DNA from: Deltaproteobacteria bacterium
GTDB taxonomy: Bacteria; Myxococcota_A; Polyangia; Haliangiales; JADYYK01
Direction of reading: 5' to 3'
Assembly (NCBI GenBank): GCA_020853705.1
Contig: JADYYK010000014.1
Span: forward strand, 77,751-141,750
DNA length: 64,000 nucleotides
The translations under genes were made by a program, and so were the position numbers. The first letter of the stretch is position 1; each line of letters opens with the position of its first letter. Positions 20,158-37,533 of this stretch are shown here, in pieces. The notes under the pieces are model-generated. The model ran no database searches. It was not told the origin of the DNA and saw nothing but the letters and a program-made list of their open reading frames with translations.

Positions 20158-20210
20158 CCCTGCCAGTGAACGAGGCCCGGCCTCGGTCAGCCCCGGTAAA
20201 GGAGACTTCG

Positions 20211-21236
20211 ATGCGCGTTTCGAGTTCGCTTCGTGTTGGTGTGGTGGCGGCGTCGCTCGGCCTGCTGGCGAGCGCGGCCTCGGCCGAGGATGTGACCATC
20301 AAGTTCGCGACCCTGGCGCCCGACGGCTCGTCATGGATGAAGCTGCTCAAGGGCGCGGCCAAGGATCTGGCGCTCAAGACGGCCGAGGTCACCAGTGGCA
20401 AGATGACCGTCAAGATCAAGTACTTCACCGGCGGCTCGGCCGGTGACGAGAAGGACGCCATCCGCAAGATCCGCGGCGGCCAGCTCGACGGCGCCGCGGT
20501 CACCGCGGTCGGCCTGGGCATGATCCAGCCCGAGGTGCGGGTGCAGGAGCTGCCCGGCGTGCTGACCGCCGGCAACAACAAGCAGCTCGACTGTGTGCGC
20601 AACAAGCTGGCGCCCGACTTCGAGAAGAAGTTCTACGAGAAGGGCTACGTCCTGCTGGGCTGGGGCGACGTCGGCCCGGTGCACATCTTCACCAACGTCG
20701 AGTTCAAGAGCCTGGCCGACCTCAAGAAGGGGAAGTTCTGGGCCTGGACCGACGACGACATCATCCGTGAGTTCATCAAGAAGATGAAGTTGAACGGCGA
20801 GCCGCTGGGCGTCCCCGGCGTGCTGCCCGCGCTGCAGACCGGCAAGATCGACTCGATCTACGCCTCGCCGCTCGCGACCGTGGCGCTGCAGTGGTACACC
20901 AAGGTCAAGTACATGTCGAAGGCGCCCATCGGCGTCGCCATCGGCGCCATGATCATCCGCAAGGAGTCCTTCGAGAAGCTGCCCCCGGAGGTCCAGACCG
21001 TGATGCGCGACAACGCCAAGGCCGTCGCGGTCAAGCTCAAGGACACCGTGCGCAAGGACAACGACAAGGCCATCAAGGCCATGGTCAAGGGCGGCATCAA
21101 GATGATCGACATCCCCGCCGACATCACCGCCGCCATCAAGACCGCGGGCGACGAGGTCTCCGGCGCGCTGGTGCCCAAGCTGTTCTCGAAGGAGCTGCTC
21201 GACAAGGTCAAGGCGACCGCCGCCGGCTGCAAGTAG
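20211..21236 (+). CDS. dctP: TRAP transporter substrate-binding protein (DctP family)
   Basis: AAAGGAG lies 7 nt before ATG 20211. Signal peptide MRVSSSLRVGVVAASLGLLASAASA/ED. DctP-like sequence IKFATLAPDGSSWMK... Confidence 0.85.
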   Translation: MRVSSSLRVGVVAASLGLLASAASAEDVTIKFATLAPDGSSWMKLLKGAAKDLALKTAEVTSGKMTVKIKYFTGGSAGDEKDAIRKIRGGQLDGAAVTAVGLGMIQPEVRVQELPGVLTAGNNKQLDCVRNKLAPDFEKKFYEKGYVLLGWGDVGPVHIFTNVEFKSLADLKKGKFWAWTDDDIIREFIKKMKLNGEPLGVPGVLPALQTGKIDSIYASPLATVALQWYTKVKYMSKAPIGVAIGAMIIRKESFEKLPPEVQTVMRDNAKAVAVKLKDTVRKDNDKAIKAMVKGGIKMIDIPADITAAIKTAGDEVSGALVPKLFSKELLDKVKATAAGCK

Positions 21237-21303
21237 CGCTTCAAGCTCACCACACCACGGCCACGGCCCCGCCCGGGGCCAGAGGGGCGAAGGGCAAGAC
21301 GCG

Positions 21304-21975
21304 ATGGCCACAACCGACTCGAAGTCGGCAGCACAGTCGTCCCCCCAGCAAAAGCCCGGCCCCATCGAGCCACTCGAGCGCGTCGACAAGCTGATCGGCC
21401 AGGGCGAAGGCGTGGTCCTGGTCAGCGCGCTGGCCTTCCTCGTCGTGCTGGGCTTTTACCGCAGCCTGTTCGAGTCGACCAAGAAGTGGTTCGGCCACCC
21501 GGTCCTGATGGAGCCGCCGGAGTGGACCACACCCACCATCCTGCTGCTGGTCTTCATGGTCGGCATGCTCGGCCTGGCGCTGGCGGCACAGGCCGACAAG
21601 CTCATCAACATCGACCTGTTCTCGCGCGTGCTCGGCGCCCGGGCCAAGCTGGTCATCCGCATCATCGGCAACAGCTTCGGCTGCATCATCAGCTACTTCT
21701 TCATCCGCACTGCCCTGCACCTGCGCAGCGTCCTCGACGACACCTCGACCGCGCGCAAGCTGCTCTCGGACAAGACCACGCAGCTGGTCATCCCGCTGAC
21801 CGTCGGCCTCGTCATCCTGCACCTGGTGGTCAAGATCGTGATCGACGTGGTCTGGCTGGCCAGCGGCAAGACCCCGCCCGAGAGCGCCCCCGGGGGCGCC
21901 CACGGCGGCGCCGCCAAGCCCGAAGCGCCCGCGGCTGACGCCGCCGCCGACGACAAGGGCGGAGGTGCGGCATGA
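21304..21975 (+). CDS. dctQ: TRAP transporter small permease (DctQ-like)
   Basis: 223 aa with four hydrophobic helices. ATGA overlap with dctM. Positioned between dctP and dctM. A weak GC hairpin (21265-21280) precedes it. Confidence 0.75.
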   Translation: MATTDSKSAAQSSPQQKPGPIEPLERVDKLIGQGEGVVLVSALAFLVVLGFYRSLFESTKKWFGHPVLMEPPEWTTPTILLLVFMVGMLGLALAAQADKLINIDLFSRVLGARAKLVIRIIGNSFGCIISYFFIRTALHLRSVLDDTSTARKLLSDKTTQLVIPLTVGLVILHLVVKIVIDVVWLASGKTPPESAPGGAHGGAAKPEAPAADAAADDKGGGAA

Positions 21976-23988: not shown

Positions 23989-24924
23989 TTGCTGGTCCCC
24001 ATCCTCAAGACGCTGCGCCCGCACCAGTGGGTCAAGAACCTGTTCGTGGCCCTGCCCTTGGTGTTCGCCAAGCGCCTCCTGGACCAGTCGTCGGCGCTGC
24101 GCGCGGCGGCGGCGGTCGGGCTGTTCTGTGCGCTGTCGGGCGCGGTGTACCTGCTCAACGACGTCGCCGACATCGAGAAGGACCGCGCCCACGCCAAGAA
24201 GAAGCACCGCCCCATCGCCTCGGGGCGGCTGCCGGTCGGGGTCGCGCTGGCGCTCGCGGGCACGCTGGCGCTGGGCGCGCTGGTGGGGGCCTCTGCGCTG
24301 GACTGGCGCTTCGCGGCGGTGGCCGGCGGCTATGTCGCCAACAACCTCTTGTACTCGTTCTGGCTCAAGCACGTGGCCTTCGTCGACGTGCTGTCGATCG
24401 CGACCGGCTTCTTCCTGCGTGTGCTGGGCGGCGCCTTCGCCATCGACGTGCCGTCGTCAGGGTGGCTCCTGGCGGTGACCTCGCTGATGGCGGCCTTCCT
24501 GGCCTTCGGCAAGCGCACCCACGAGCTGGCTGCCGCCGCGCGCGAGGTCCTGGCCAGCCCGGCCTACAGCGGCCCGGAGGCGGTGACGACCAACTCGCAG
24601 ATCGGCAAGACCCGGCGTGTACTGGAGAAGTACAAGCTCGAGCAGCTGCGCCTGGTGGTCTACGTCTTCGGCGCGCTGACCTCGGCGGCCTACGTGGCGT
24701 ACACCCTGTCGGGCCACACCCAGCGCTTCTTCCACACCCGCTGGATGTGGCTGTCGGCGCCGTTCTGTCTGGTCGGCATCGGCCGCTTCGTCTGGCTGGT
24801 CAGCCACGCCGCGCACGCCGACAGCCCGACCGACGCCATGCTGCGCGACCCGCCCTTCGTCATCAACCTGGTGCTGTGGGCGGCCTGCATCACCGCGCTG
24901 ATCTACCAGGGCATGCTGGGCTAG
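23989..24924 (+). CDS. UbiA-family prenyltransferase, decaprenyl-phosphate phosphoribosyltransferase-like
   Basis: 311 aa with a TTG start. N-terminus LKTLRPHQWVKNLFV. Asp-rich motif YLLNDVADIEKDRAHAKKKHRPIASG. Multiple TM helices. Confidence 0.8.
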   Translation: MLVPILKTLRPHQWVKNLFVALPLVFAKRLLDQSSALRAAAAVGLFCALSGAVYLLNDVADIEKDRAHAKKKHRPIASGRLPVGVALALAGTLALGALVGASALDWRFAAVAGGYVANNLLYSFWLKHVAFVDVLSIATGFFLRVLGGAFAIDVPSSGWLLAVTSLMAAFLAFGKRTHELAAAAREVLASPAYSGPEAVTTNSQIGKTRRVLEKYKLEQLRLVVYVFGALTSAAYVAYTLSGHTQRFFHTRWMWLSAPFCLVGIGRFVWLVSHAAHADSPTDAMLRDPPFVINLVLWAACITALIYQGMLG

Positions 24925-24935
24925 TGCCGGGCGTC

Positions 24936-24966
24936 AGAAATTCCGCCGTGAAAGGGCGGGACTTCT
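24936..24966 (+). terminator. Imperfect hairpin 12 nt after the UbiA stop (possible terminator or attenuator)
   Basis: AGAAATTCCGCC-gtgaaag-GGCGGGACTTCT: 12-bp arms with one mismatch and one G-U pair, followed by a moderately T-rich tract (ccggttccggttctt). No clear U-run. Confidence 0.3.
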
Positions 24967-25029
24967 GGCAGCGGCACTATCCGGTTCCGGTTCTTGGGCC
25001 CGAAATCACACGCGTGATACGCTGCCGGC

Positions 25030-28000
25030 GTGCGCCCGAATAGCGGCCTGGCGGGCCAGCGCGTCCTGGTCATCGACTCCGACCTCGCGCACGCGACGAC
25101 CACGGTGGAGATCCTGCGCGGCCACGGCGCCAACGCCGACTGGGTCGCCGATGTGACCGCCGGGCTGCGCGCGCTGGCCTCGCGCGAGCCGGCGGTGCTG
25201 CTGCTGGCGCTGGCGCTGGCCAGCCCCGCCGTCCCGGGGGCGCCGCCGCAGGGTGACGGCGGGCTGTGGCTGCTGCGCCGCCTGCGTGACGACTACATGG
25301 GGCGGCGACCGCACGTCATCGTGACCGAGCGCGCCGACCGCGTCGATGCCCGGCTGGCTGACTTCGGGGTCGACGCCGTGATGCTCAAGCCGGCCAGCGC
25401 CGAGACCCTGCTGGCCGCGGTGCTGCGCGCGGTCGATCCCGAGGACGCCACCCACGGCCAGGGCTGGTACCGCGAGCTCATCAAGGCCTCGGTGCTCGAG
25501 GGCGACACCCAGTTCGCGCTGACCAGCCTGGCCAAGCGGCTACAGCTGGCGGCGCGCGTGCACGACTGCATCATCACGGCCACCGTCAGCGAGCGCGACT
25601 ATGCCGCCAGCGCGGGCGGCACCGCGCACGAGGAGTTCGACTCGCCGGTGTGGGAGAGCGCCCGGGTCTCGCTCGACGCCGCCGCCACCGTGCTGGCGCA
25701 GGACCCGACCACCACCAGCTCGCTGGCGGTGGCCATCGAGCAGCCCGGCGGCACCCGCCTCGGGGTCATGGTGCTGCACGACGACCGGGCGCGGACCTGG
25801 GCGCCCGACGTGCGCGAGTCCCTGGTGGCGCTGGGGCAGCGGGTCTACTCGGAGCTGGCCTGGCGCTCGGTGCAGGAGCGCATCACCGCGGACAACGCCC
25901 GCCTGTACGAGATCTCGATGCTGGATCCGATGCTGCCCGGGGTGTGGACGCGGGCGGCGCTGGATCAGGCGCTGGCGGCCGAGGTGGCGGCGCGGCAGCG
26001 CAGCGGCGACCCGGTCACGGTGGCCATCCTCGACCTGCGCCGCCTGCGCGCCATCAACGATCGCCACGGCCACGCCGCCGGTGACGCCGCCATGAAGCAC
26101 GTCGCGCACCTGGTGCGGCAGCAGCTGCGCCCGCACGATCTGCTGGCGCGCTACTCGGGCGACGCGCTGGCGGTGGTGCTGGTGCGCGCCGCGCTGACCG
26201 ACGCCCGCCGCGTGGTCGAGCGCCTGCGCGAGGCGGTGGCGCAGACCCCGCTGGAGTGGGAGGGCCGCGGCCTCGGCCTCGAGATCGTCGGCGGCCTGGC
26301 CTGCTCGCTGAGCGACGATGACACCGCCGAGGTCACGCTGGCGCGCGCCTCGCTGGCGGCCAAGGCGGCCAAGCGCAAGAGCGACGGCGTCGTGGTCGCC
26401 GACGCCCAGCTCAGCGAGCTCGACGCGCCCGACACCCAGCGCGGGCTCGAGGCCGGCGCCATCCTGGGCGGCATGTACAAGATCATCCACGAGATCGATC
26501 GCGGCGCCATGGGCGTGGTCTACCGCGCCGAGGACATGGGCCTCGGGCGCGCGGTGGCGCTCAAGACCTTGCGCCCCGACCTGGCGCGCGATCTCAGCTT
26601 CGTGGCGCGCTTCCGCGGCGAGGCCACCACGCTGGCCGCGCTGCGCCACGAGAACCTGGTCCAGGTGCACTCGTTCGGCAGCGACGGCGACGACGTCTAC
26701 TTCGTGATGGAGCTGGTCGAGGGCGAACCGCTGGAGGAGCGGCTGGCGCGCGCCGAGCAGGACGGGCCGGCCATCCCGCTGCCCGAGGCGGTGGTCGTGC
26801 TGGAGCAGATCGCGGGCGCGCTCGACACCATGCACCACGCCGGCATCCTGCACCGCGACGTCAAGCCGGCCAACATCGTGCTCGATCGCGCCAAGAACCG
26901 CGCCGTCCTGGTCGACGTCGGGATCGCCAAGCGGCGCGGCGGCCCCACCGACGCCGCGGGCACGCCGGGCTTCATCGCGCCCGAGAGCTTCCAGGGCGGC
27001 GCCGAGGGGCCTACCGCCGATGTCTATGGCCTGGCCGCCACCGCGTACATGGTGCTGGCCATGGTGCCGCCCTTCGGCGACGGCGACATCACCCAGATCC
27101 TGCGCCGTCAGGAGGCCAAGGCCTCGCTGCCGCCGTCGGCGCACCGTCCCGGGCTGCCGCATGCGGTCGACAAGGTGCTCTTGCAGTCGCTGGATCCCGA
27201 CGCCAGCAAGCGCCACCCCTCGGCGGGCGCGCTGGTGACGGCGCTGGCCGAGGCGCTGCTCGGCGCGGCCCCCGACGTGCAGCGCGGCGACGACTTCCAG
27301 CCGCGGCGCAGGCCGGTGGCGGGCGCCGCGCCCGAGACCACGCAGCTGCGCGGCGCCGCCGCGGTCACCCGCGCGCAGAGCCCCGAGGGGGTGGCCGCGG
27401 TGGAGGCGCTGGGCCCCCCCGCGGTGCCCGGGCCGGCGCTCGATGGTCACGGCGCCGGGCGCGCCAGCGGCAGCGCCAGCAACGCCGACGCCGACGCCGG
27501 GCCGCTGACCGCGGTCAAGGAGCAGGAGGTCCACAAGGGTCGCCCGGTCGAGCCGCGCGCGGTGATCGCTCCGCCGGCGCTGGATCGGCCGGACTTCTCG
27601 GCCGACAGCGGCGTCGTCAACCTGGCCCTGCGGGATCCCCACGCCACCGATCCCAGCCGACCGGCCGCGCGGGCCGGCCGCATGCCCGAGCCGACGCCAT
27701 ATCCCGAGCGCGGCGCGCGCCTGCCCGAGCCGACCCCGTATCCCGAGCGCGGCGCGCGCCTGCCCGAGCCGACGCCGCAGCCCTTCCTGGGCGCGCCGAC
27801 CTCGTCGGGCTCGTCGGGCTCGTTCCCCGGCCTGGGCGCGCCGCAAGCCACCCTGCCCCCGTCCAACCAGGCCATGCGCGCGGCGCTGCGCCAGACCCCG
27901 GGCCGGCCCAGCCGCCGGGTGTCGACGCTGCCGCCGGGCATGGGCCTGGAGGCGCCGGCGCAGACGCGCGGCGTGCTGTTCCGCGCCGCGCCGGGGCTGC

Positions 28001-28512
28001 TGGGCGCGCGCCGGGGCGCCGCCTGGCTGCGCGAGCTGTCGCGCCAGAGCACCTCGCTGGCCGAGGTGCTGCAGCCGCAGGGCTCGCTGCTGGCGTGGTA
28101 CCCGACCGACCTCTACCTGCTCATGCTGCACTCGGTGCCGGCCGACTCGCGCGAGCCGCGGGCCTTCGCGCGCGAGCTGGGGCGCTCCGCGGCGGCGTCG
28201 ACCTTCGCGCGCTTCCTCGGCGCCGATCCCAACAAGCTCAACGCCCAGACCCTGCTCGACATGATCGGGGTGCTCTGGCACCGCTACCACACCTGGGGTC
28301 GGCTGGAGGTCGCGGCGCGGGCGCCCGGGATGGCCCGCCTGCACCTCGGCGAGGGGCTGCGCGACCCGCTGCTGACCGCGTCGGTGGCCGGGATCCTGGA
28401 GAAGGTGGCCGGCCTGTCCGGGCTGCACGGCGCGGCGCTGGAGGTCGCGGCCGACGACGCCGAGGGCGCCACCGAGTCCCAGTTCGTGCTGCGCTGGCGC
28501 GAACCCGGGTAA
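25030..28512 (+). CDS. Multidomain signalling protein: pseudo-receiver - GAF-like - degenerate GGDEF (I-site retained) - Ser/Thr protein kinase - Pro-rich repeat - C-terminal domain of unknown function
   Basis: 1160 aa with a GTG start. Receiver-like VLVIDSD...MLKPAS, but Ala at the phospho-acceptor position (AVLLLALALASP). GGDEF fold with RPHD-LLARY-SGDAL. Kinase motifs RGAMGVVYRA, VALK, HRDVKPANIV, DVG and GTPGFIAPE. Repeat PEPTPYPERGARL x2.5. Confidence 0.88.
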   Translation: MRPNSGLAGQRVLVIDSDLAHATTTVEILRGHGANADWVADVTAGLRALASREPAVLLLALALASPAVPGAPPQGDGGLWLLRRLRDDYMGRRPHVIVTERADRVDARLADFGVDAVMLKPASAETLLAAVLRAVDPEDATHGQGWYRELIKASVLEGDTQFALTSLAKRLQLAARVHDCIITATVSERDYAASAGGTAHEEFDSPVWESARVSLDAAATVLAQDPTTTSSLAVAIEQPGGTRLGVMVLHDDRARTWAPDVRESLVALGQRVYSELAWRSVQERITADNARLYEISMLDPMLPGVWTRAALDQALAAEVAARQRSGDPVTVAILDLRRLRAINDRHGHAAGDAAMKHVAHLVRQQLRPHDLLARYSGDALAVVLVRAALTDARRVVERLREAVAQTPLEWEGRGLGLEIVGGLACSLSDDDTAEVTLARASLAAKAAKRKSDGVVVADAQLSELDAPDTQRGLEAGAILGGMYKIIHEIDRGAMGVVYRAEDMGLGRAVALKTLRPDLARDLSFVARFRGEATTLAALRHENLVQVHSFGSDGDDVYFVMELVEGEPLEERLARAEQDGPAIPLPEAVVVLEQIAGALDTMHHAGILHRDVKPANIVLDRAKNRAVLVDVGIAKRRGGPTDAAGTPGFIAPESFQGGAEGPTADVYGLAATAYMVLAMVPPFGDGDITQILRRQEAKASLPPSAHRPGLPHAVDKVLLQSLDPDASKRHPSAGALVTALAEALLGAAPDVQRGDDFQPRRRPVAGAAPETTQLRGAAAVTRAQSPEGVAAVEALGPPAVPGPALDGHGAGRASGSASNADADAGPLTAVKEQEVHKGRPVEPRAVIAPPALDRPDFSADSGVVNLALRDPHATDPSRPAARAGRMPEPTPYPERGARLPEPTPYPERGARLPEPTPQPFLGAPTSSGSSGSFPGLGAPQATLPPSNQAMRAALRQTPGRPSRRVSTLPPGMGLEAPAQTRGVLFRAAPGLLGARRGAAWLRELSRQSTSLAEVLQPQGSLLAWYPTDLYLLMLHSVPADSREPRAFARELGRSAAASTFARFLGADPNKLNAQTLLDMIGVLWHRYHTWGRLEVAARAPGMARLHLGEGLRDPLLTASVAGILEKVAGLSGLHGAALEVAADDAEGATESQFVLRWREPG
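27685..27783 (+). repeat. 39-bp in-frame tandem repeat, 2.5 copies
   Basis: cccgagccgacgccatatcccgagcgcggcgcgcgcctg (27685-27723), a near-identical copy (27724-27762), and a partial third copy (27763-27783). Confidence 0.95.
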
Positions 28513-28529
28513 CACGGTACATAACCCGC

Positions 28530-29618
28530 GTGTCCGACCGCGGGATCGAGCAGCGCAAGGCCGATCACCTGGCCCTGGTGGCCGACGGCGACGTCGCGTT
28601 CAGGCGCTCGTCGCTGCTGAGCTGCGTCGAGCTCATGCACGACGCGCTGCCCGAGCTCGACACCCGCGAGGTCGATCTGACCACCGAGCTGGCCGGCAAG
28701 CGCCTGCGCGCGCCGCTGGTCATCGCGGGCATGACCGGCGGCACCGACGAGGCCGCGCGCCTCAACAAAGATCTGGCGCTGGTGGCGCAGAACGCCGGGG
28801 TGGCCTTCGGCCTCGGCTCGCAGCGCGCCATGCTGGTGCGGCCGGAGACGGCGTGGACCTTCGAGGTGCGCGACGTGGCGCCCGACGTGGTGCTGCTGGC
28901 CAACCTCGGCGTGGTGCAGGCCGGCCAGCTGGCGGTGGCCGAGGTGCGCAAGCTGTGCGCGCGCGTCGGCGCCGACGCCCTGTGTGTGCACCTGAACCCG
29001 GGCATGGAGCTGGTGCAACCGGGCGGGGATCGCGACTTCCGCGGCGCGCTGGGCACGCTGGCGCGCCTGCGCGACGGCCTCGAGCTGCCCATCATCGTCA
29101 AGGAGACCGGCTGCGGGCTGTCGCCCGAGGTGGCGCTGCGGCTGCGCAAGCTGGGCATCACCACGGTCGATGTCGGCGGCGCCGGCGGGACCTCGTGGGT
29201 CGGGGTCGAGACCCGGCGCGCCGAGGGGGCGCAGCGGGGCATCGGTGAGGCGCTGTGGGACTGGGGCGTGCCGACCGCGGTCAGCGTGGTCGGCTGTGCG
29301 CGCGCGGGCCTCGAGACCATCGCCACCGGCGGGCTGCGCGACGGGCTGGACGTGGCGCGCGCGCTGGCGCTGGGGGCGCGCGCGGCCGGGCTGGCGGCGC
29401 CGCTCTTGAAGGCGCACCGTGACGGTGGCGCGCCGGCGGCCGAGGCGCTGCTGGGCACGCTGATCGAGACCGTGCGCTCGGTGCTGGTGCTGACCGGGTG
29501 TCGGCGGCCGGAGGAGCTGACGCGCAGGCCGCGCGTGATCCTGCCCCCGCTGCGCGACTGGCTGGAGCAGCTGGGGCTCGGGGGATCGGGCGGGAAGCTC
29601 GTGCCGGACGGGCCGTGA
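28530..29618 (+). CDS. fni: Type 2 isopentenyl-diphosphate delta-isomerase
   Basis: GTG 28530 within ORF 28095-29618, 17 nt after the kinase stop. Motifs VSDRGIEQRKADHL, IAGMTGGT, VKETGCG and VDVGGAGGTSW. Confidence 0.92.
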   Translation: MSDRGIEQRKADHLALVADGDVAFRRSSLLSCVELMHDALPELDTREVDLTTELAGKRLRAPLVIAGMTGGTDEAARLNKDLALVAQNAGVAFGLGSQRAMLVRPETAWTFEVRDVAPDVVLLANLGVVQAGQLAVAEVRKLCARVGADALCVHLNPGMELVQPGGDRDFRGALGTLARLRDGLELPIIVKETGCGLSPEVALRLRKLGITTVDVGGAGGTSWVGVETRRAEGAQRGIGEALWDWGVPTAVSVVGCARAGLETIATGGLRDGLDVARALALGARAAGLAAPLLKAHRDGGAPAAEALLGTLIETVRSVLVLTGCRRPEELTRRPRVILPPLRDWLEQLGLGGSGGKLVPDGP

Positions 29619-29655
29619 TGCGGTGCCGACCGGACCGCGCCAGGGAGCGGCGCTG

Positions 29656-30591
29656 ATGCCTCGCCACGTCCCACGCGGCGTCTGCAAGGCGATCCTGACC
29701 GGCGAGCACGCGGTGGTGTATGGCCACGAGGCGCTGGCGACCGCGCTGCCGCTGGGCTTCGCGGCCACGCTGGATCATCCGCCCCAGGGGCCCCTGCTGG
29801 CGGTCGAGGTCGCGGCCACCAGCGCCGAGGCGGTGCCGTTCCGCGGCGCGCTCGGGGATGGCTCGATGCTGGGCCAGGCCATCGAGAAGATCGCGGCGGC
29901 GCTGGGCGTCTCGCGCCAGCGGCCGCTGCTGGTGCGGGTGGTGGGCGATGTGCCGCTGGGGCGCGGCCTGGGGTCGTCGGCGGCGCTGGCCGCGGTGATC
30001 GCGGACGCCCTGGCGGTCGCGCACGGCCTCGAGCTGCCGGTGGACGAGCTGGCGCGCGCGGCCCGGGCGGGCGACGAGGTGTTCCACGGGCGCGCCTCGG
30101 GGATCGACGCCGAGGCGGCGGTGCGCCGCGAGCTGGGGCTGTTCTCGCGCACGGCGGGCTGGCGGCGGGTCGAGGCGGCGCCGCTGCACCTGCTGGTGGT
30201 CGACAGTGGTGAGCCGCGCAGCACCGCCGACGTGGTGGCGCGCGTGGGCGCGCGGCGCGCGGCCGACGAGCTCGGGGTGGCGCGGCTGATGGCGGCGATG
30301 GGGGCGCTGGCGCAGCCGGCGGCGACGGCCGCCCGCACGGGCGACCTGGCCGCGCTGGGGCGGGTGTTCGATGACAACCACCGCCTGCTGCAGGAGCTCG
30401 GAGTGTCGACGCCGGGGCTCGACGCCGCGGTGGTGGCGGCGCGTGAGGCCGGCGCGCTGGGCGCCAAGCTGACTGGCGCCGGTGGTGGTGGCGTGGCCAT
30501 CGCGCTGATGGCGGATCGTGCCGCGCTGACGCGGGCGCACGCCGCGGTGGTCGCGGGCGGACGCAAGGGCTGGGCGCTGACATGTCCGTGA
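29656..30591 (+). CDS. mvk: Mevalonate kinase
   Basis: ATG 29656 (GGGAG upstream; GTG 29623 is also possible). GHMP motifs KAILTGEHAVVYG, GRGLGSSAALAAVIADAL and KLTGAGGGG. Confidence 0.9.
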   Translation: MPRHVPRGVCKAILTGEHAVVYGHEALATALPLGFAATLDHPPQGPLLAVEVAATSAEAVPFRGALGDGSMLGQAIEKIAAALGVSRQRPLLVRVVGDVPLGRGLGSSAALAAVIADALAVAHGLELPVDELARAARAGDEVFHGRASGIDAEAAVRRELGLFSRTAGWRRVEAAPLHLLVVDSGEPRSTADVVARVGARRAADELGVARLMAAMGALAQPAATAARTGDLAALGRVFDDNHRLLQELGVSTPGLDAAVVAAREAGALGAKLTGAGGGGVAIALMADRAALTRAHAAVVAGGRKGWALTCP

Positions 30592-31574
30592 CCGCAGGTG
30601 GCAAGGCGACCGCGCGCGCGCACGCCAACATCGCGCTGGTCAAGTACTGGGGCAAGCGTGCGGGGGCGGGCAACGTGCCGGCGGCGCCCAGCCTGTCGAT
30701 GACGCTGGACGCCCTGGTGACCGAGACCACGGTGGAGCTGGGGGACGGCGCGACCGACGAGGTCGAGCTGGATGGGGTCGCGGCGGGGCCGGACGCGGTG
30801 ACCCGCGTGGGGCGTGTGCTGGGCGAGCTCCGCGCGCGCGCCGGGAGCACGAGCACGAGGATGGCGTGCGTGAAGTCGCGCAACTTCTTCCCGACGGCGT
30901 CGGGGCTGGCGTCGTCAGCGTCAGCGTATGCGGCGCTGGTGACGGCGGCAGCGGCGGCGTATGGCGTCGAGCTGTCGCCGGAGGACGCCTCGCGGCTGGC
31001 GCGCAAGGGCAGCGCCTCGGCGGCGCGGTCGATCCATGGCGGCTGGGTCCTCCTGCCCGGCGGTGACGAGGCCGGGCCGGACCCCGCGGCCGAGCCGCTG
31101 GCGCCGCCCGACGCCCTCGACGTCGCCATGGTCGTGGCCATCACCGATCCCGGCCCCAAGAAGGTGTCGTCGCGCGACGGCATGACGTTGACCGCGGAGA
31201 CCTCGCCGTACTACCAGCCCTGGCTGGCCACCGCGCGCGCCGACGCCGCCGCCGCCCGCGCCGCCCTGGCCGCGCGCGAGCTGCCCCGCCTCGGCGAGCT
31301 CATGGAGCAGAGCTGCCTGGCCATGCACGCCTCGGCGCTGGCGGCGCGCCCGGGGGTGATCTACCTGCGCGGGGTCACCCTCGACGGCTTCCTGCTGGTG
31401 CGCGAGCTGCGCCGCGGCGGCCGGTCGTGCTGGTTCACCGCCGACGCCGGCCCGCACGTGAAGGCGCTGTGCGCGCGCGCCGACGCCGCACAGGTCGCCG
31501 CCGCCCTGGGCGCGCTGCCCGGGGTCACCCGCACCCTGGTCTCGGCGCCCGGGGGCAAGGCCCACCTTGTCTGA
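30582..31574 (+). CDS. mvaD: Diphosphomevalonate decarboxylase
   Basis: 330 aa. Motifs NIALVKYWGKR and ASGLASSASAYAALV. Overlaps the mvk end by 10 nt. Confidence 0.92.
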   Translation: MSVTAGGKATARAHANIALVKYWGKRAGAGNVPAAPSLSMTLDALVTETTVELGDGATDEVELDGVAAGPDAVTRVGRVLGELRARAGSTSTRMACVKSRNFFPTASGLASSASAYAALVTAAAAAYGVELSPEDASRLARKGSASAARSIHGGWVLLPGGDEAGPDPAAEPLAPPDALDVAMVVAITDPGPKKVSSRDGMTLTAETSPYYQPWLATARADAAAARAALAARELPRLGELMEQSCLAMHASALAARPGVIYLRGVTLDGFLLVRELRRGGRSCWFTADAGPHVKALCARADAAQVAAALGALPGVTRTLVSAPGGKAHLV

Positions 31575-32553
31575 AGCGCGTGTCGGCACCCGCGCGGTGG
31601 CGCCTGGCAAGGCCTTCGTGTGCGGTGAATATGCCGTGCTCGAGGGCGGCATGGCGGTGGTCGCCGCCGTCGACCGGCTGGCCGTTGCCGAGATCCGGAG
31701 CGCTGCCGACGCGCCGCCGGCGACCGACTTCGTGGCCGCCGCGCTGGCCGAGATGAAGACGCGCTTCGGGCTGACGGTGCCGGGCATCGCCATCGACACC
31801 AGCGCGTTCAGCCATCGAGAGAACCGCAAGCTCGGCCTGGGTTCGTCGGCCGCCACCGTGGCGGCCACCGTGTGCGCGGTCTGGCTGGCCCATGAGCGCC
31901 CCCTGGCGCGCGCGCGCATGACCCTGCACGACGCCGCGCTGGCAGCCCACGCCAGGGCCCAGGAGGCCCGCGGCGCGGCCGGCTCGGGGGCCGACGTCTC
32001 GGCCTCGATCATGGGTGGTCTCACGGGGTTCCAGCGCACGGCCAGCATCACCCGCGCGGTCCACCTGGACCATGGTCCGCTGTCGGGCGGCCCGGGCAGC
32101 GCGACCCTGTGTTTCGTCGACACGGGGAATCCAGCCGATACCGCGGGAATGCTGGCAAACCTGGGCTCGTTGCGCGACAGGGCCCGAACGCGGTATGACT
32201 CCACCTTCGAAGCTCTCAGACAGGGCGCCCGACGCTTCCTGAGCGCCCTCGAGGCAGCACAGATTCACGAAATGATCCAGGAATACGATAGCTACGGTGC
32301 GGCGCTCGAAGCGCTGGGGGTGCTCGCGGGGAGCCCCATCGTGACCCCTGCCCACGCCGCCGTGCGCACCCTGGCGCGCGCGCTGGGTGGCGCCGCCAAG
32401 CCGTCGGGCGCTGGCGGGGGCGATCTCGCCGCCGTGCTGCTGCCCCCTGGGATCGCCCCCGAGGCGCTCGACCCTGGCCTCGCCGCCGCCGGCCTCGCGC
32501 GGGTGCCGCTGGCGCTGCGCCACGCCGGCGCGGGGCTGGAGCAGGCGCGATGA
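31567..32553 (+). CDS. Phosphomevalonate kinase (GHMP type)
   Basis: 328 aa with a TTG start. Motifs PGKAFVCGEYAVLEG, KLGLGSSAATVAATV and KPSGAGGGD. Overlaps the mvd end by 8 nt. Confidence 0.85.
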   Translation: MSEARVGTRAVAPGKAFVCGEYAVLEGGMAVVAAVDRLAVAEIRSAADAPPATDFVAAALAEMKTRFGLTVPGIAIDTSAFSHRENRKLGLGSSAATVAATVCAVWLAHERPLARARMTLHDAALAAHARAQEARGAAGSGADVSASIMGGLTGFQRTASITRAVHLDHGPLSGGPGSATLCFVDTGNPADTAGMLANLGSLRDRARTRYDSTFEALRQGARRFLSALEAAQIHEMIQEYDSYGAALEALGVLAGSPIVTPAHAAVRTLARALGGAAKPSGAGGGDLAAVLLPPGIAPEALDPGLAAAGLARVPLALRHAGAGLEQAR

Positions 32554-33881
32554 GCCAGGGCGGCGGCAAGCTCCCGGGGCGCTCGTCACGCATGTCCGGC
32601 TTCTACCGGCTGCCGCTGGCCGAGCGTCGCGCCCAGCTCAGCGCCGCCATGGGCGCGCCGGGCAGCGACCTCGGCTGCCTCGACGACGGCGGGCTCGACC
32701 TCGACGCCGCCAACGATCTCATCGAGAACGTCATCGGCACCTACTCGCTGCCGCTCGGCCTCGGCCTCAACTTCGTGGTCAACGGCCGCGACTACCTGGT
32801 CCCGATGTGCGTCGAGGAGCCCTCGGTGGTGGCCGCCGCCTCCAACGCCGCGCGCATGGTGCGCAGCGGCGGCGGCTTCAAGGCCGACGCCGATCCGCCC
32901 ATCATGATCGCGCAGGTCGAGCTGCGCGACGTGCCCGACCTCGGCCGCGCCGAGGCCGCCATCGCCGCCGCCACCCCGCGCCTGCTCGCCGAGGCCGACC
33001 TGGTCATCGGCAAGCTGGTCGAGCGCGGCGGCGGCGCGCGCGCCATCGTGCCGCGCCGCCTGGGCCCGCACGAGCTGTGCATCCACCTCGAGATCGACTG
33101 CCGCGACGCCATGGGCGCCAACCTGGTCAACGGCGTCGCCGAGGCGCTGGCGCCGCGCCTGGGCGAGCTGTCGCAGGGCCGCGTCGGGCTGCGCATCCTG
33201 TCCAACCTGGCCGATCGCCGCCGCGTGCGCGTGCGCTGTCGGGTGCCCGCCGCCGAGCTGGCCGCCGGCGGCCTGCCCGGCCCCGAGGTGGTGGCCGCCA
33301 TCGCCGCGGCGTCGCGCTTCGCCGAGCTCGACCCCTACCGCGCCGCGACCCACAACAAGGGCATCATGAACGGTGTCGACGCCGTGGCCCTGGCCATCGG
33401 CAACGACTGGCGGGGCATCGAGGCCGGCGCCCACGCCTACGCCGCGCTGAGCGGACGCTACCGTCCCCTGGCGACCTGGAGCGCGGCCTCCGGCGGCGCG
33501 GCCCTGGAGGGCCAGCTGGAGATGCCGATGGCGGTCGGCACCGTGGGCGGGGCGCTGCGGGTGCACCGCGGCGCGCGCCTGAGCCTGGCCATCCTGGCCG
33601 CCGACAGCGCGCAGGAGGTCGCCGGCGTCATCGGCGCGGTCGGCCTGGCGTCCAACCTGGCCGCGCTGCGTGCGCTGGCCACCGAGGGCATCCAGCGCGG
33701 CCACATGGAGCTGCACGCGCGCTCGGTGGCGCGCGGGGTCGGCGCCGAGGGCGACCTGGTGGCCCGCGTGGCCGCCGAGCTGGCCCACGCTGGCGACTTC
33801 AAACCCGAACGTGCCCAGGCCATCCTCGATCGCCTGCGCATGCTGAACTCGACGGTCTCGAACCCGGAGGTCCTGAAGTGA
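32550..33881 (+). CDS. mvaA: Class II hydroxymethylglutaryl-CoA reductase
   Basis: 443 aa. Motifs ENVIGTYSLPLGLGLNFVVNGRDYLVPMCVEEPSVVAAAS, DAMGANLVN, AVGTVGG and GIQRGHMELHAR. ATGA overlap with pmk. Confidence 0.94.
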   Translation: MSQGGGKLPGRSSRMSGFYRLPLAERRAQLSAAMGAPGSDLGCLDDGGLDLDAANDLIENVIGTYSLPLGLGLNFVVNGRDYLVPMCVEEPSVVAAASNAARMVRSGGGFKADADPPIMIAQVELRDVPDLGRAEAAIAAATPRLLAEADLVIGKLVERGGGARAIVPRRLGPHELCIHLEIDCRDAMGANLVNGVAEALAPRLGELSQGRVGLRILSNLADRRRVRVRCRVPAAELAAGGLPGPEVVAAIAAASRFAELDPYRAATHNKGIMNGVDAVALAIGNDWRGIEAGAHAYAALSGRYRPLATWSAASGGAALEGQLEMPMAVGTVGGALRVHRGARLSLAILAADSAQEVAGVIGAVGLASNLAALRALATEGIQRGHMELHARSVARGVGAEGDLVARVAAELAHAGDFKPERAQAILDRLRMLNSTVSNPEVLK

Positions 33882-34885
33882 GCATCCCCGCCCCTGCCCC
33901 GGTGTCGCCGCTGCCGCACGACACCACTGCGCCGCCGCCCAGCGCGGCCACCGTCGAGCAGGCCTACGCGGTGTGCGCCCAGATCGCCGGGCGCCATGGC
34001 GAGAACTTCCCGGTCGCCTCGCTGCTGACGCCGCCGCGGCTGCGCCGGCACGTGCAGGCCATCTATGCCTTCGCGCGCACCGCCGACGACTTCGCCGACG
34101 AGCCCGCCTTCGAGGGCCGCCGCGGCCAGCTGCTCGACGCCTACGACGACGAGCTCGAGCGCGCCTTCCGCGGCGAGGCCAGCCAGCCCATCTTCATCGC
34201 GCTGGCCGACACCGCCGAGCGCTTCGAGCTGCCCATCGCGCCGTTCCAGGACCTCCTGTCGGCCTTCCGCGCCGATCTGACCCGGCGCCGCTACGCCACC
34301 TTCGCCGAGCTGCGCGGCCTGCTCACCCTGGTGGCCGAGCCGATCGGGCGCCTGCTGCTCAACCTGTTCGGGTATCGCTCGCCGGCGCTGCTGCGCTATG
34401 GCGACGACCTCTCGGCCGGGCTGGCGCTGGCCAACTTCTGGCAGGACGTCGGCAAGGATCTGGCGCGCGACCGGATCTACCTGCCCAGCGAGGATCTGCG
34501 CCATTTCGGCGTCACCGAGGACGACCTGCGCGATCGCCTGGCGGGCCGCCCGCCGCGCACCGGCAGCGCCAAGGACATGACCCAGCGCATCCGCGACCTG
34601 ATGCGCTTCGAGGTCTCGCGGGCGCGCGCCATCCTCGATCGCGGCCGGCCCCTGATCGAGGCGGTGGGCCCCGACGTCGGGGTCGAGATCGCCGCCTTCT
34701 GGCTGGGCGGCCAGCGCATCCTCGACAAGATCGAGGCTGGCCGCCACGACGTGCTGACGCGCCGTCCGCGCACCAATGGCTTCGACCTGCTGGCGGTCGG
34801 CGCCGGGGCGCTGTGGTGGCGGGCGCGCGCGCGCCTGGCCGGGCGCGGCGCGGCGCGGCCGTCGTTCGAGCGGAGCGGCGGATAG
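33878..34885 (+). CDS. hpnC: Squalene/phytoene synthase family, HpnC-like (hydroxysqualene synthase)
   Basis: GTG 33878 overlaps the hmgR stop (GTGA). Motifs GENFPVAS, YAFARTADDFADE and ANFWQDVGKDLARDRIYLPSEDL. Confidence 0.78.
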   Translation: MSIPAPAPVSPLPHDTTAPPPSAATVEQAYAVCAQIAGRHGENFPVASLLTPPRLRRHVQAIYAFARTADDFADEPAFEGRRGQLLDAYDDELERAFRGEASQPIFIALADTAERFELPIAPFQDLLSAFRADLTRRRYATFAELRGLLTLVAEPIGRLLLNLFGYRSPALLRYGDDLSAGLALANFWQDVGKDLARDRIYLPSEDLRHFGVTEDDLRDRLAGRPPRTGSAKDMTQRIRDLMRFEVSRARAILDRGRPLIEAVGPDVGVEIAAFWLGGQRILDKIEAGRHDVLTRRPRTNGFDLLAVGAGALWWRARARLAGRGAARPSFERSGG

Positions 34886-34887
34886 CG

Positions 34888-35892
34888 ATGCCGGGCGGGC
34901 AGTCAGGCCTGGGAACCCTGGGTGGTCACGAGCTGGGCTTCTGGCACAAGCTGCGCCTGCGCAGCCGGTCCAACCTGTACTTCGCGCTGGCCTTCCTGCC
35001 CCGCCACCAGCGCGAGGCCTTCCGCGACGTGTACCGCTTCCTGCGCTCGGCCGACGACGTGGTCGACGAGGCCGGCGCCGCCGAGCGCCCGGCCGCGGCG
35101 CGCGCGCTGGCGTCGTTCTCCGACGAGCTGTCGCGGATCTATGCCGGCGGTGCCGCCAGCGTGGCGGCCGCGGTGCCCGAGGCCGCCCGCCTCAGCGCGG
35201 TGATCCGTCGCTTCGGCCTGCCGCGGCGCCACTTCGACGCCATCCTGGCCGGGATCGCGCGCGACCTCGACGACCGCGCCACCCCGCACGCCGACTGGGC
35301 CGCGCTGGCGGCCTACTGCGAGGCCATCGGCTCGTCGCTCGGCCACCTCAGCCTGGCGCTGTTCACCGACGGCGATCCCGCGGTGCTGGCCGACCCCGCG
35401 GCCGCGACCTACGCCCACGATCTCGGGCTGGCGCTGCAGCTGGCCAACATCCTGCGCGACGTCGGCGAGGACGCCGCGCGCGGGCGGATCTACCTGCCGG
35501 TGGAGGACCTCGTGCGCTTCGAGGTCGACCCCGCCAGCCTGCTCGCGCGCCGCATGACGCCGGCCTTCGCGCGCCTGGCCGCGCACGAGCACGGCCGCAT
35601 CCGGGAGCTCATCGCCAGTGCGCGCGCCGCGCTGGCGACCCGCCCGGCCCTGCGCCGCCGCCTGGTGGTGGCCGAGATCTGGGCCGACGTCTACCTGGCC
35701 CAGCTCGACGCCCTGGCCGCACGCGGCTGGGACGTGTTCGCGCCCGGGCCCACGCTGCGCAAGCGGCGCAAGCTGGCGCTGGCGGTCAGCCGCTGGGTGC
35801 GCACCCGGCTCGGCTTCGGGCTGGGGCCGGCCGACGGCCCGGGCCAGGCCAGCGCTGGCGCGGCGCCCCCCATCGCTTCCCATCGCGCCTGA
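34888..35892 (+). CDS. hpnD: Squalene/phytoene synthase family, HpnD-like (presqualene diphosphate synthase)
   Basis: ATG 34888, 2 nt after the hpnC stop. Motifs SNLYFALAFLPRHQREAFRDVYRFLRSADDVVDE and ANILRDVGEDAARGRIYLPVEDL. Confidence 0.78.
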   Translation: MPGGQSGLGTLGGHELGFWHKLRLRSRSNLYFALAFLPRHQREAFRDVYRFLRSADDVVDEAGAAERPAAARALASFSDELSRIYAGGAASVAAAVPEAARLSAVIRRFGLPRRHFDAILAGIARDLDDRATPHADWAALAAYCEAIGSSLGHLSLALFTDGDPAVLADPAAATYAHDLGLALQLANILRDVGEDAARGRIYLPVEDLVRFEVDPASLLARRMTPAFARLAAHEHGRIRELIASARAALATRPALRRRLVVAEIWADVYLAQLDALAARGWDVFAPGPTLRKRRKLALAVSRWVRTRLGFGLGPADGPGQASAGAAPPIASHRA

Positions 35893-35913
35893 AACCGTCT
35901 ATTCTCCGGCGCC

Positions 35914-36174
35914 GTGTCGACCTCATCCGACAAGCTCCAGGCCCTGTTCACCACCATGGCCCGCGCGATGTTCCTGAACCGGCTGCACCTCCTCCGGCTC
36001 ACGGAGGTGGTCCGCCACGGCATCCGCCCCAACGACGAGGGCGTCCTGCTCCTGCCCGACAAGCTCGACAAGGAGATGAAGGACCAGGCCTGGGAGTTCG
36101 TCATGGCCATGGTGCCCGAGGAGTATCACCTCGCCATCGTGCGCAACCGTGCGCAGTGGATGGACGTCCAGTAG
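35914..36174 (+). CDS. Small (86 aa) hypothetical protein closing the isoprenoid operon
   Basis: GTG 35914 (ATG 35956 is also possible), 21 nt after hpnD. The composition is balanced (K/E/M/F/N-containing), unlike the Arg/Ala/Gly/Pro-rich GC-artefact ORFs. Followed by a hairpin. Confidence 0.55.
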   Translation: MSTSSDKLQALFTTMARAMFLNRLHLLRLTEVVRHGIRPNDEGVLLLPDKLDKEMKDQAWEFVMAMVPEEYHLAIVRNRAQWMDVQ

Positions 36175-36187
36175 AGCTCCCGTGACG

Positions 36188-36212
36188 CCGGGCGCTGGAC
36201 CGAGCGCCCCGG
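36188..36212. terminator. GC-rich hairpin between convergent genes (bidirectional terminator candidate)
   Basis: ccGGGCGCT-ggaccg-AGCGCCCcgg: a 7-bp perfect stem extended by 2 bp across a 1-nt bulge. Lies between the stop at 36174 (+) and the stop at 36220 (-). Confidence 0.45.
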
Positions 36213-36219
36213 CCCCGGT

Positions 36220-37533
36220 CTACTTGCGCTTGCGCAGCGCCTCCAGCCGCGCCGCCTCGGCGCTGCCCTCGCGTGGCTGGTAGTAGCGAGCCTGATCGAG
36301 CGCCTCGGGCAGGTAGTCGGCCACCACGTAGGCGCCCTCGAAGTCGTGCGGGTACTTGTAGTTGCGCCCGTGGCCCAGCGACTCGGCCAGGGCGGTCGGC
36401 GCGTTGCGCAGGTCTTTCGGCACCGGCAGCGGGCCGCGCGCCAGCACGTCCTTGCGCGCGGCGGCGTAGGTCGTCAGCGCGGTGTTCGACTTGGGCGCCA
36501 GCGCGAGGTGCAGCGCGGCCTGGGTCATCGGCAGCACCCCCTCGGGCAGGCCGATGAACTTGACCGCGTCGAGCGCGGCGGTGGCCACCAGCAGCGCCTG
36601 CGGATCGGCCAGCCCGATGTCCTCGGCGGCGAAGATGACCATGCGCCGCACGATGAACAGCGGATCTTCGCCGGCCTCCAGCATGCGCACCATCCAGTAC
36701 ACCGCGGCGTCGGGATCGCTGCCGCGCATCGACTTGATGAAGGCCGACACCACGGCGTAGTGCTCGTCGCCGGCCTTGTCATAGCGCAGGGTGCGCTTCT
36801 GCAGCGCCTGCTCCAGCACGGTGACGTCGACCCGCTTGCCGGCGCCGGCCAGCTGCGCCGCCAGCTCCAGCGTGGTCAGCGCGCGGCGGGCGTCGCCGTC
36901 GGCCTCGGCGACCAGGCGCTCGCGCGCGCCCGGCTCCAGCGTCAGCTCCAGGGCGCCGAGGCCGCGCTCGCGATCGGCCAGCGCGCGCCCGACCAGGGCG
37001 TCGAGCGCGGCGTCGTCGAGCGGCTCCAGCGGCACCACCTTGAGGCGCGACAGCAGCGCGGCGTTGATCTCGAACGACGGGTTCTCGGTGGTGGCCCCGA
37101 TCAAGGTCAGCGTGCCGGCCTCGACGGCGGGCAGCAGGGCGTCCTGCTGCGCCTTGGACCAGCGGTGGATCTCGTCGACGAACAGCAGGGTGCGCTTGCC
37201 GTACATGTCGCGGCGCTGCTCGGCCTCGGCGATGACCTCGCGCAGCTCCTTGACGCCGCCCGAGACCGCCGACACCGTCGCGAAGTGCGCCCCGGTCGTC
37301 TCGGCCATCACCCGCGCCAGCGTGGTCTTGCCGGTGCCCGGCGGGCCCCACAGCACCAGCGACGGCACCTGATCGCGTGCGATGGCCGCCGACAAGAGCT
37401 TGCCCTCGCCGAGCAGGTGGGCCTGCCCCACCACCTCGGCCAGGCTGCGCGGTCGCATGCGCTCGGCCAGGGGCTGCCCGGCGCCGCGCTTCTGGGCCTG
37501 GTGGCGGAAGAGGTCCATCGCGACCCGATCCAT
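36220..37533 (-). CDS. rarA: Replication-associated recombination protein A (AAA+ ATPase)
   Basis: 437 aa. Walker A GPPGTGKTT, Walker B LLFVDEIHR, GATTENPSFE, and the MgsA C-terminal region. Confidence 0.94.
   Translation of the reverse strand: MDRVAMDLFRHQAQKRGAGQPLAERMRPRSLAEVVGQAHLLGEGKLLSAAIARDQVPSLVLWGPPGTGKTTLARVMAETTGAHFATVSAVSGGVKELREVIAEAEQRRDMYGKRTLLFVDEIHRWSKAQQDALLPAVEAGTLTLIGATTENPSFEINAALLSRLKVVPLEPLDDAALDALVGRALADRERGLGALELTLEPGARERLVAEADGDARRALTTLELAAQLAGAGKRVDVTVLEQALQKRTLRYDKAGDEHYAVVSAFIKSMRGSDPDAAVYWMVRMLEAGEDPLFIVRRMVIFAAEDIGLADPQALLVATAALDAVKFIGLPEGVLPMTQAALHLALAPKSNTALTTYAAARKDVLARGPLPVPKDLRNAPTALAESLGHGRNYKYPHDFEGAYVVADYLPEALDQARYYQPREGSAEAARLEALRKRK

Follow-up and report, generated by a model that had tools for sequence, protein, structure and literature searches.

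A multi-sensor Ser/Thr kinase gene beside the mevalonate-squalene gene cluster of a Polyangia bacterium points to a lineage-restricted insertion

Introduction

In eukaryotes, AMP-activated protein kinase (AMPK) phosphorylates class I 3-hydroxy-3-methylglutaryl coenzyme A (HMG-CoA) reductase, in the human enzyme at Ser872. For the bacterial enzyme, our literature search found no report of control by a kinase. Here we describe a 64-kb stretch of DNA from a Deltaproteobacteria bacterium of the Polyangia (contig JADYYK010000014.1, positions 77,751 to 141,750; hereafter the window, with a GC content of 72.6%), in which a Ser/Thr kinase gene lies 17 nt upstream of fni, the first gene of a cluster for the lower mevalonate pathway, HMG-CoA reductase and squalene-forming enzymes. 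Comparison with related loci suggests that an ordinary Polyangia isoprenoid cluster has here received a recent insertion of a general signalling kinase gene at a rearrangement-prone junction, a reading to which we assign a probability of about 0.6.

The closest described arrangement is pfk-pkn4 of Myxococcus xanthus, in which, according to a passage of PMC2887360 that cites Nariya and Inouye (2002), the gene of a Ser/Thr kinase (Pkn4, PktD1) shares a transcript with that of the kinase's substrate, phosphofructokinase. Synteny of the pkn4 region extends over seven myxobacteria (PMC2887360). About every thirtieth gene of Sorangium encodes such a kinase, and proximity alone is weak evidence for a functional link (PMC2887360). 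The metabolic side of the locus is also familiar, as the combination of mevalonate genes with the HpnC/HpnD(/HpnE) route to squalene occurs as the same block in Nannocystis, Plesiocystis, Enhygromyxa and many metagenome-assembled genomes (MAGs) of Polyangia.

An initial annotation of the window, made from its letters alone, placed the kinase at the head of the isoprenoid operon and proposed that it controls the pathway post-translationally, in analogy to eukaryotic HMG-CoA reductase. Conservation of the kinase-fni adjacency in related genomes had been set beforehand as a check of this proposal. We followed it up with profile matches from Pfam and NCBIfam, in which bit scores were compared with the family cut-offs, together with structure comparison and a survey of related loci, which are referred to by L numbers.

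Conservation of the kinase-fni junction

The kinase gene (25030..28512, forward strand; Pkinase PF00069 125 bits, GGDEF PF00990 90 bits) is followed by a spacer of 17 nt (28513..28529), read directly from the sequence, and by fni, which encodes a type 2 isopentenyl-diphosphate isomerase (28530..29618, forward strand; TIGR02151 354 bits, cut-off 281). On its other side lies the gene of a UbiA-family prenyltransferase. Four loci, L004, L006, L007 and L008, were the only ones to show the order UbiA-kinase-fni, and their amino acid identity to the window is 92-99%. One of these loci was detected through a 96% identical relative of the kinase and three through a 98%-identical fni; one is located on an 8.0-Mb contig of GCA_963853155.1. 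A wider genome scan based on fni alignment, complemented by tblastn with the window proteins and a survey of the neighbouring genes, covered 80 Myxococcota loci with an fni of 52-61% identity. In none of these 80 loci does a Ser/Thr kinase (Pkinase) gene adjoin fni. The adjacency, which the initial annotation had taken as a sign of regulation, is thus restricted to nearly identical strains. That annotation had named an adjacency peculiar to this one genome as grounds for rejecting its proposal, and this is essentially the situation encountered.

The related loci show what the junction looks like elsewhere. In L056, L069, L075, L078 and L082 a TAtT-DctP-DctM-UbiA string abuts fni-mvk-mvd-(pmk)-hmgR-hpnC without a kinase gene and with spacers of 16-60 nt. 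The order of TRAP-type transporter genes upstream of UbiA and fni is also present in L010 and L050, with four genes between UbiA and fni in the former and a single unrelated gene in the latter, and in L043 DctM adjoins fni. Nannocystales loci share the series fni-mvk-mvd-pmk-hmgR-hpnC-hpnD and have unrelated genes upstream, and in Polyangiaceae fni is divergent from a polyprenyl synthase-mvk-mvd-pmk-hmgR series.

In L060 (474-5976) a HAMP-GAF histidine kinase gene and then a REC-GGDEF gene are found directly upstream of fni, preceded by a 532-aa open reading frame (ORF) that is assumed to encode an SBP_bac_5 protein, without a Pfam scan. The same trio of SBP_bac_5, HAMP-GAF histidine kinase and REC-GGDEF genes is present in the window 15 kb away (3867-9773, reverse strand), in the opposite relative orientation; this points to an inversion of the local segment, one breakpoint of which was the fni 5' junction. 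The idea that signalling genes recur beside fni as a regulatory hotspot was considered and rejected as anecdotal, the L060 case being a local rearrangement. L010 (7904-9757), L013 (6427-8343) and L059 (7900-9867) each have a histidine kinase gene on the reverse strand that immediately precedes fni and is transcribed away from it. The L010 protein, the one of the three that was scanned against Pfam, is of the GAF-PAS type; the three may go back to a single inherited event.

Genomic context of related kinases

A protein search with the kinase returned one near-identical cluster (96%) and about 43 clusters with the same domain architecture, at 38-54% identity by BLASTP and 35-51% over full-length alignments. 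All of these clusters originate from metagenomic Polyangia or "Deltaproteobacteria". A profile scan of metagenomic contigs rested on the generic motifs GAMGVVYR and HRDVKP and mainly recovered unrelated kinases (79 of 80 loci), L089 being the family member among them.

The genomic context was recovered for eight distant homologues. Five (L002, L003, L005, L169 and the P0009 contig) follow surE-pcm(-phosphoribosyltransferase) and have variable downstream genes; the complete string reads (thrS-infC-rpmI-)rplT-pheS-pheT-ihf-merR-surE-pcm-(phosphoribosyltransferase), and it is probably the usual location of the family. A sixth homologue, L170 (6707-11587; 42% identity by BLASTP, 38% over the full alignment), is located between pgk and tpiA in a gap-pgk-tpiA-secG series, 11 nt before tpiA, which makes it a second example of a family member within a core metabolic operon, and the remaining two are in other contexts. 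Mevalonate genes are near none of the eight. A neighbour-joining tree sets the window clade apart as a deep branch of its own, next to the surE-linked clade. Since the relatives have either the operon without the kinase or the kinase elsewhere, the adjacency in the window is weak evidence for control of the pathway by the kinase. Judged from this synteny, it appears to have arisen at a junction prone to rearrangement and not to reflect a conserved kinase-substrate relationship.

Domain architecture of the kinase

The kinase is a cytoplasmic protein of 1160 aa in which no transmembrane segment was detected, and it is built from six modules rather than being a simple kinase: a pseudo-receiver (residues 12-131; PF00072 21 bits, cut-off 30), a GAF-like region (residues ~140-290), a degenerate GGDEF domain (residues 302-450; PF00990 90 bits), a Hanks-type Ser/Thr kinase domain (residues 483-728; PF00069 125 bits), a Pro-rich linker and a C-terminal domain resembling H-NOX and V4R proteins (residues 972-1160; nt 27943-28509, forward strand). 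In an alignment of 43 sequences sharing this architecture, the VALK lysine K512, the HRD motif (608-610), D629 of the DVG motif and the GTPGFxAPE motif are invariant or nearly so. By these motifs the domain is a catalytically intact member of the Hanks-type kinases. An earlier catalogue already lists fusions of Ser/Thr kinases and GGDEF domains, in another arrangement (PMC1262709).

The N-terminal modules are likely to act as inputs to the kinase. The phospho-acceptor position of the receiver is occupied by alanine in the window protein and by Glu, Asp, Ala or Thr in its homologues, so that the window protein would not be phosphorylated at this site. In the GGDEF domain the active-site motif reads SGDAL (AGDAL in a sister strain; family consensus [AGS]GD[SAT]L), so the signature of a diguanylate cyclase is lacking. 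The RxxD motif of the inhibitory site (I-site), R367-P-H-D370, is intact and followed by LLARY-SGDAL, i.e. it is placed five residues before the degenerate motif, and the family alignment shows a conservation of 90% or more for both R367 and D370. The retained I-site next to a degenerate active site suggests that the domain probably binds cyclic di-GMP (c-di-GMP) instead of synthesising it. PopA of Caulobacter and the histidine kinase SgmT of M. xanthus are reportedly c-di-GMP receptors of this kind; the protein described here shares with them the degenerate motif and the intact I-site and differs in its output, a Ser/Thr kinase.

The linker contains a tandem repeat (nt 27679-27777, forward strand) with a 39-nt unit in 2.5 copies and 93% matches, which encodes LPEPTPYPERGAR units. 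Its copy number varies between strains, L007 having one unit fewer.

The C-terminal 189 aa were predicted with high confidence (AlphaFold2 model, pLDDT 90). A Foldseek comparison of the model with the H-NOX structures 4u99, 6bde and 3tf8 gave TM-scores of 0.65-0.70 over the full length, and a weaker resemblance was seen to the palmitate-binding TRAPPC3/Bet3 proteins. The predicted fold is thus shared with H-NOX domains, without their heme-propionate motif YxSxR, which was not found in the 189 aa by inspection of the sequence. An invariant Tyr-His pair (in RYHTWG) is present across the family. Of 16 family members, 11 match V4R (PF02830) with this domain and 9 match DUF2378 (PF09536; TIGR02265), while the window copy has no match to either above the Pfam thresholds, at 38-46% identity to the members that do. 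Small hydrophobic molecules are the ligands generally predicted for V4R domains, and a small ligand, likely a hydrophobic one, is probably bound by the C-terminal domain. Our literature search found almost nothing on DUF2378.

The HMG-CoA reductase

The product of hmgR (32550..33881, forward strand) is a class II HMG-CoA reductase (TIGR00532 349 bits), which aligns to the Pseudomonas mevalonii enzyme (1QAX) with 355 bits. The human class I enzyme (1DQ8) aligns with it by sequence only over residues 57-113, and a correspondence to the AMPK site can therefore not be demonstrated. The window enzyme has a serine, Ser392, in the sequence GHMELHARS just after the catalytic-histidine motif GHM (HARS at residues 389-392, nt 33714-33725). 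Of the 50 motif matches across the surveyed loci, 32 read HARS, kinase-less loci included, and 10 read HARA, and the closest syntenic loci without a kinase gene vary between HARA, HARG, HARL and HARS. As HARS is widespread where no kinase gene is present, Ser392 does not track the kinase. It was considered as an AMPK-like site and rejected for this reason, and because the C-termini of class I and class II enzymes cannot be aligned by sequence.

Compared with the eukaryotic system, the locus thus has in common a kinase and a reductase encoded together and a serine a few residues after the catalytic-histidine motif. It differs in the class of the reductase, which is not a class I enzyme with a regulatory serine behind the catalytic histidine, and in the kinase, which is related to AMPK by the Hanks fold alone.

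Transcription signals

The 36 nt before the kinase start (24994..25029, forward strand) are conserved and, on inspection, contain a candidate promoter of the leaderless type. It consists of TTGGGC (24994-24999), 18 nt, TACGCT (25018-25023), 6 nt and the GTG start codon; the 18-nt spacer ends in TGA and so provides an extended -10 TG (25015-25016). The initial annotation had pointed to the lower-GC stretch before this GTG as part of the 5' boundary, and the promoter-like element is present exactly there. A TANNNT box precedes the kinase start by 6-8 nt in the window clade and in L001 (TAAGAT), L002 (TATAAT, a perfect match), L003 (TATGCT) and L169 (TAAGGT, counted from an in-frame GTG further upstream, with which the protein regains the N-terminus of the family); in L005 the box TAAAAT lies 10 nt upstream. 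This amounts to 5-6 of eight lineages. As such a box precedes 0.55% of RTG codons in the background, its presence in at least five of eight starts corresponds to a P of about 3e-10.

Within the whole window we counted 11 TANNNT-N6-8-[AG]TG motifs, eight of which open long ORFs with a high GC content at third codon positions (GC3; P 0.012), starting at 25030, 35914 and 39774 on the forward strand and at 39900, 56057, 9587, 2449 and 54632 on the reverse strand. The box of the ORF at 35914 is TATTCT (35900-35905), 8 nt before its GTG. This suggests that leaderless-type promoters abutting the start codon are common in the host organism. Such promoters fit into spacers of 20-40 nt, and hence tight spacing alone is no proof of a single transcript. 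A scan for sigma-70 promoters and terminators over 23500-37500 returned nothing; its criteria miss the TTGGGC/TACGCT pair.

The spacer between the kinase gene and fni is 100% identical in the five sequences and contains neither a terminator-like site nor significant structure, in line with the earlier remark that it has no hairpin. It includes a box, TACATA (28518-28523, positions -12 to -7 of fni), with counterparts at the same distance in L056 (TACAAC), L069 (TACAAA), L082 (TAGAAA), L043 (TACATA) and L050 (TAAAAG). The box begins with TA, is A-rich and is kept whatever gene lies upstream, so the spacer in the window would still carry the ancestral box of fni. Because no terminator follows the kinase gene, transcripts reading from it into fni-hpnD are plausible from the sequence. 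The co-transcription proposed in the initial annotation is plausible to this extent. From the TANNNT boxes, the kinase family appears to have a promoter of its own.

The isoprenoid gene cluster and its neighbours

All nine co-directional genes between 25030 and 36174 were checked against the sequence, the ORF tables and the Pfam and NCBIfam profiles, and every identity and junction spacing of the initial annotation was reproduced. Downstream of fni, and likewise on the forward strand, mvk (29623..30591; TIGR00549 199 bits, cut-off 163) encodes mevalonate kinase. Its start is either GTG 29623, 4 nt after fni, or ATG 29656, 37 nt after fni; in the sister locus L006 the gene caller chose the equivalent of ATG 29656. 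It is followed by mvd for diphosphomevalonate decarboxylase (30582..31574; TIGR01240 242 bits, cut-off 171) and by pmk (31567..32553), a GHMP-family gene whose best match, TIGR01220, reaches 91 bits at a cut-off of 166 and which was assigned as phosphomevalonate kinase from this match and its identical position in syntenic loci. Behind hmgR lie hpnC for an HpnC-type squalene synthase (33878..34885; TIGR03464 273 bits, cut-off 250) and an hpnD-like gene for presqualene diphosphate synthase (34888..35892), for which TIGR03465 scores best among the SQS_PSY models, yet at 201 bits below the cut-off of 279. The series ends with an ORF of 86 aa (35914..36174; GC3 0.95) that has no family in Pfam or NCBIfam; homologues are present in L006 (99% identity) and in L018 (45%), there between hpnC and rarA.

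With fni, mvk, mvd and hmgR all exceeding their equivalog cut-offs, the lower mevalonate pathway and the reductase are well identified. As in the initial annotation, HMG-CoA synthase (mvaS) and thiolase were not found among the ORFs called in the window. An HpnE-type amine oxidase was found neither among these ORFs nor in L006, and the last step to squalene must be encoded elsewhere in the genome or be absent. Measured against the HpnCDE route, the window thus holds hpnC and an hpnD-like gene, the latter, like pmk, below its family cut-off.

The genes overlap by 10 nt (mvk/mvd) and 8 nt (mvd/pmk), share ATGA (pmk/hmgR) and GTGA (hmgR/hpnC), or are separated by 2 nt (hpnC/hpnD) and 21 nt (hpnD/86-aa ORF). 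Since they overlap or lie a few nucleotides apart, with a maximum of 37 nt between fni and mvk, fni to hpnD is very likely a single transcription unit. Its 3' end is likely marked by a hairpin (36170..36225; -27.8 kcal/mol, z -2.8) between the 86-aa ORF and the convergent rarA/mgsA gene (36220-37533, reverse strand; MgsA_C 214 bits).

At the other end, the co-directional run does not begin with the kinase gene at 25030 but at 19183. The run opens with the TRAP-type transporter genes TAtT, DctP, DctQ and DctM (19183..23906, forward strand; Pfam 215, 116, 47 and 235 bits, respectively) and continues with the UbiA-family prenyltransferase gene (23989..24924, forward strand; Pfam UbiA 73 bits). 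The closest family of the latter is decaprenyl-phosphate phosphoribosyltransferase, with 211 bits for NF008977 (cut-off 234) and 200.5 bits for NF008978 (cut-off 207).

Between the UbiA stop codon and the kinase promoter the window contains 69 nt (24925..24993) that have no counterpart in L004, L006 and L007, where 36 nt separate the UbiA stop from the kinase GTG. This strain-specific insertion carries a hairpin (24933-24975; -32.8 kcal/mol, z -2.8). Both hairpins reported before are thus real and more stable than shuffled controls; the upstream one, proposed as the 5' boundary of the operon, lies inside an insertion that is missing from three sister-strain sequences. The insertion is present once in the window, no copy was found in the 171 loci searched, and no Rfam family matched anywhere in 18500-38000, the insertion included. 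It is possibly a small mobile element or one resembling repetitive extragenic palindromic (REP) sequences. A step in GC content at 25000 was considered as a sign of foreign origin and rejected, because GC3 is 0.96 on either side; the step reflects the amino acid composition of membrane proteins.

Generally, TRAP genes, UbiA (similar to decaprenylphosphoryl-phosphoribose synthase), fni-mvk-mvd-pmk-hmgR-hpnC(-hpnD), the 86-aa ORF and a convergent rarA form a conserved block in Polyangia MAGs, and the corresponding region of the window (19183-37533) recurs in whole or in part in L010, L018, L056, L059, L069, L075, L078 and L082. Divergent from the TRAP genes lie two adjacent very large genes (11258-19203, reverse strand), of which one encodes a protein of 1355 aa with TPR repeats and the other a protein of 1339 aa that combines DUF3857 and DUF3858 with a transglutaminase core. 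An ORF on the forward strand (43009-44307), located some 7 kb beyond the downstream end of the isoprenoid genes, has a weak match to the tocopherol-cyclase-like family PF14249 (29 bits, cut-off 26.6).

Discussion

The comparison favours an ordinary isoprenoid cluster next to an inserted signalling gene. The ancestral order would have been TRAP, UbiA, fni, mvk, mvd, pmk, class II hmgR, hpnC, an hpnD-like gene, the 86-aa ORF and convergent rarA. From the distribution of the kinase gene we infer that in one species-level lineage an insertion of 3.5 kb brought this gene in precisely behind the UbiA stop codon and ahead of the upstream box of fni, and that the gene carried along its own short promoter of the leaderless type. 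The product would be a soluble multi-sensor protein in which c-di-GMP and a small ligand gate an intact Hanks-type kinase. Transcripts from its promoter would probably cross the 17-nt spacer into fni-hpnD, and expression of the kinase and of the mevalonate genes may be linked in the lineage of the window, presumably without a specific substrate among the neighbouring enzymes.

Several observations weigh against this reading. The insertion is neat and stable: five sequences share the spacer without a difference, and the kinase reaches 95-96% identity from strain to strain, a value comparable to its neighbours; this would also fit a functional coupling under selection. The box before fni, TACATA, does not end in the canonical T and may or may not serve as an independent promoter. 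The surE-linked homologues may be orthologues or paralogues of the window kinase, whose clade has its own deep branch, and the embedding of a homologue between pgk and tpiA raises the possibility that the family acts on any pathway of which it becomes a part. The serine of HARS near the catalytic histidine of the reductase and the myxobacterial precedent of a kinase-substrate operon, pfk-pkn4, as given in a passage of PMC2887360, belong here as well.

These points bear most directly on the proposal of an AMPK-like control of flux, in which kinase and pathway genes share a transcript and the kinase acts on HmgR or other Mva/Hpn enzymes by phosphorylation. A short spacer that is invariant among strains and free of a terminator, intact catalytic motifs, the location of Ser392 and a homologue inside a glycolytic operon all agree with it, as does pfk-pkn4, where likewise a Hanks-type kinase gene is co-directional and tightly packed with genes of metabolic enzymes in a myxobacterium. 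However, the adjacency described here exists in one species-level lineage only, the kinase gene lies upstream with its own promoter, and the sensor architecture is another one. A kinase-substrate operon is expected to keep its adjacency across related genomes; here it was seen in 0 of 80 fni loci and with 0 of 8 distant homologues. HARS does not track the kinase, and the class II reductase has a C-terminal region that cannot be aligned by sequence to the class I enzyme bearing the AMPK site. In genomes as rich in kinases as that of Sorangium, with about one gene in 30, chance adjacencies are to be expected (PMC2887360). We therefore regard direct control of the pathway enzymes by phosphorylation as unlikely, and the control proposed in the initial annotation is not supported. 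The complete version of it, in which the kinase senses c-di-GMP and a ligand, its promoter drives the operon and it phosphorylates HmgR (e.g. at Ser392) or another Mva/Hpn enzyme, is less likely again.

Two further explanations were considered. The inserted leaderless promoter, in this strain together with the hairpin upstream, might have become the main promoter of fni-hpnD, so that the consequence would be a transcriptional rewiring and nothing else. The extended -10 TG-N-TACGCT with a correctly spaced TTGGGC before the kinase GTG, the missing final T of the fni box and the lack of a terminator after the kinase gene are consistent with it, and the hairpin could shield the unit from UbiA read-through. 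The sister strains do without this hairpin, however, and the fni box is kept in L050, where fni apparently follows an ORF on the minus strand; this ORF is uncertain, as it has no family match, and if it is real, the box can act alone. We consider rewiring possible, though doubtful. Alternatively, the kinase could be a feedback sensor that reports the output of the pathway, with its C-terminal domain binding an isoprenoid-derived or other lipid. The fold resemblance to H-NOX and, more weakly, to TRAPPC3/Bet3, the prediction for V4R domains and the location of the gene between a prenyltransferase and the mevalonate genes would suit such a role. Yet the same domain is found in family members far from isoprenoid genes, the heme motif of H-NOX is absent, and the ligand cannot be inferred from sequence; this explanation appears very improbable. 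Hence, the insertion of a general signalling kinase gene beside an ordinary isoprenoid cluster remains our preferred reading.

If the kinase did control HMG-CoA reductase, this would be the first phospho-regulation of the mevalonate pathway in bacteria. It would also connect c-di-GMP with the isoprenoid and squalene supply of a group that makes sterol-like lipids. The complete version would amount to a convergent bacterial parallel to the way AMPK governs the flux of sterol precursors, coupled to a second messenger. In the preferred reading, the locus instead illustrates that tight spacing in high-GC genomes by itself defines neither an operon nor a functional partnership. It also documents a conserved TRAP-UbiA-mevalonate-HpnCD gene block, which brings together a TRAP transporter, a prenyltransferase of the polyprenyl-phosphate type and mevalonate-squalene genes. 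The findings of wider use are the architecture of the kinase, its habit of sitting in housekeeping gene strings and the geometry of the leaderless promoters. Together they describe a widespread kinase family of the Polyangia that combines a pseudo-receiver, a GAF-like region, a GGDEF domain with an I-site, a Ser/Thr kinase and an H-NOX/V4R-like domain, and whose genes are repeatedly found inside strings of housekeeping genes.

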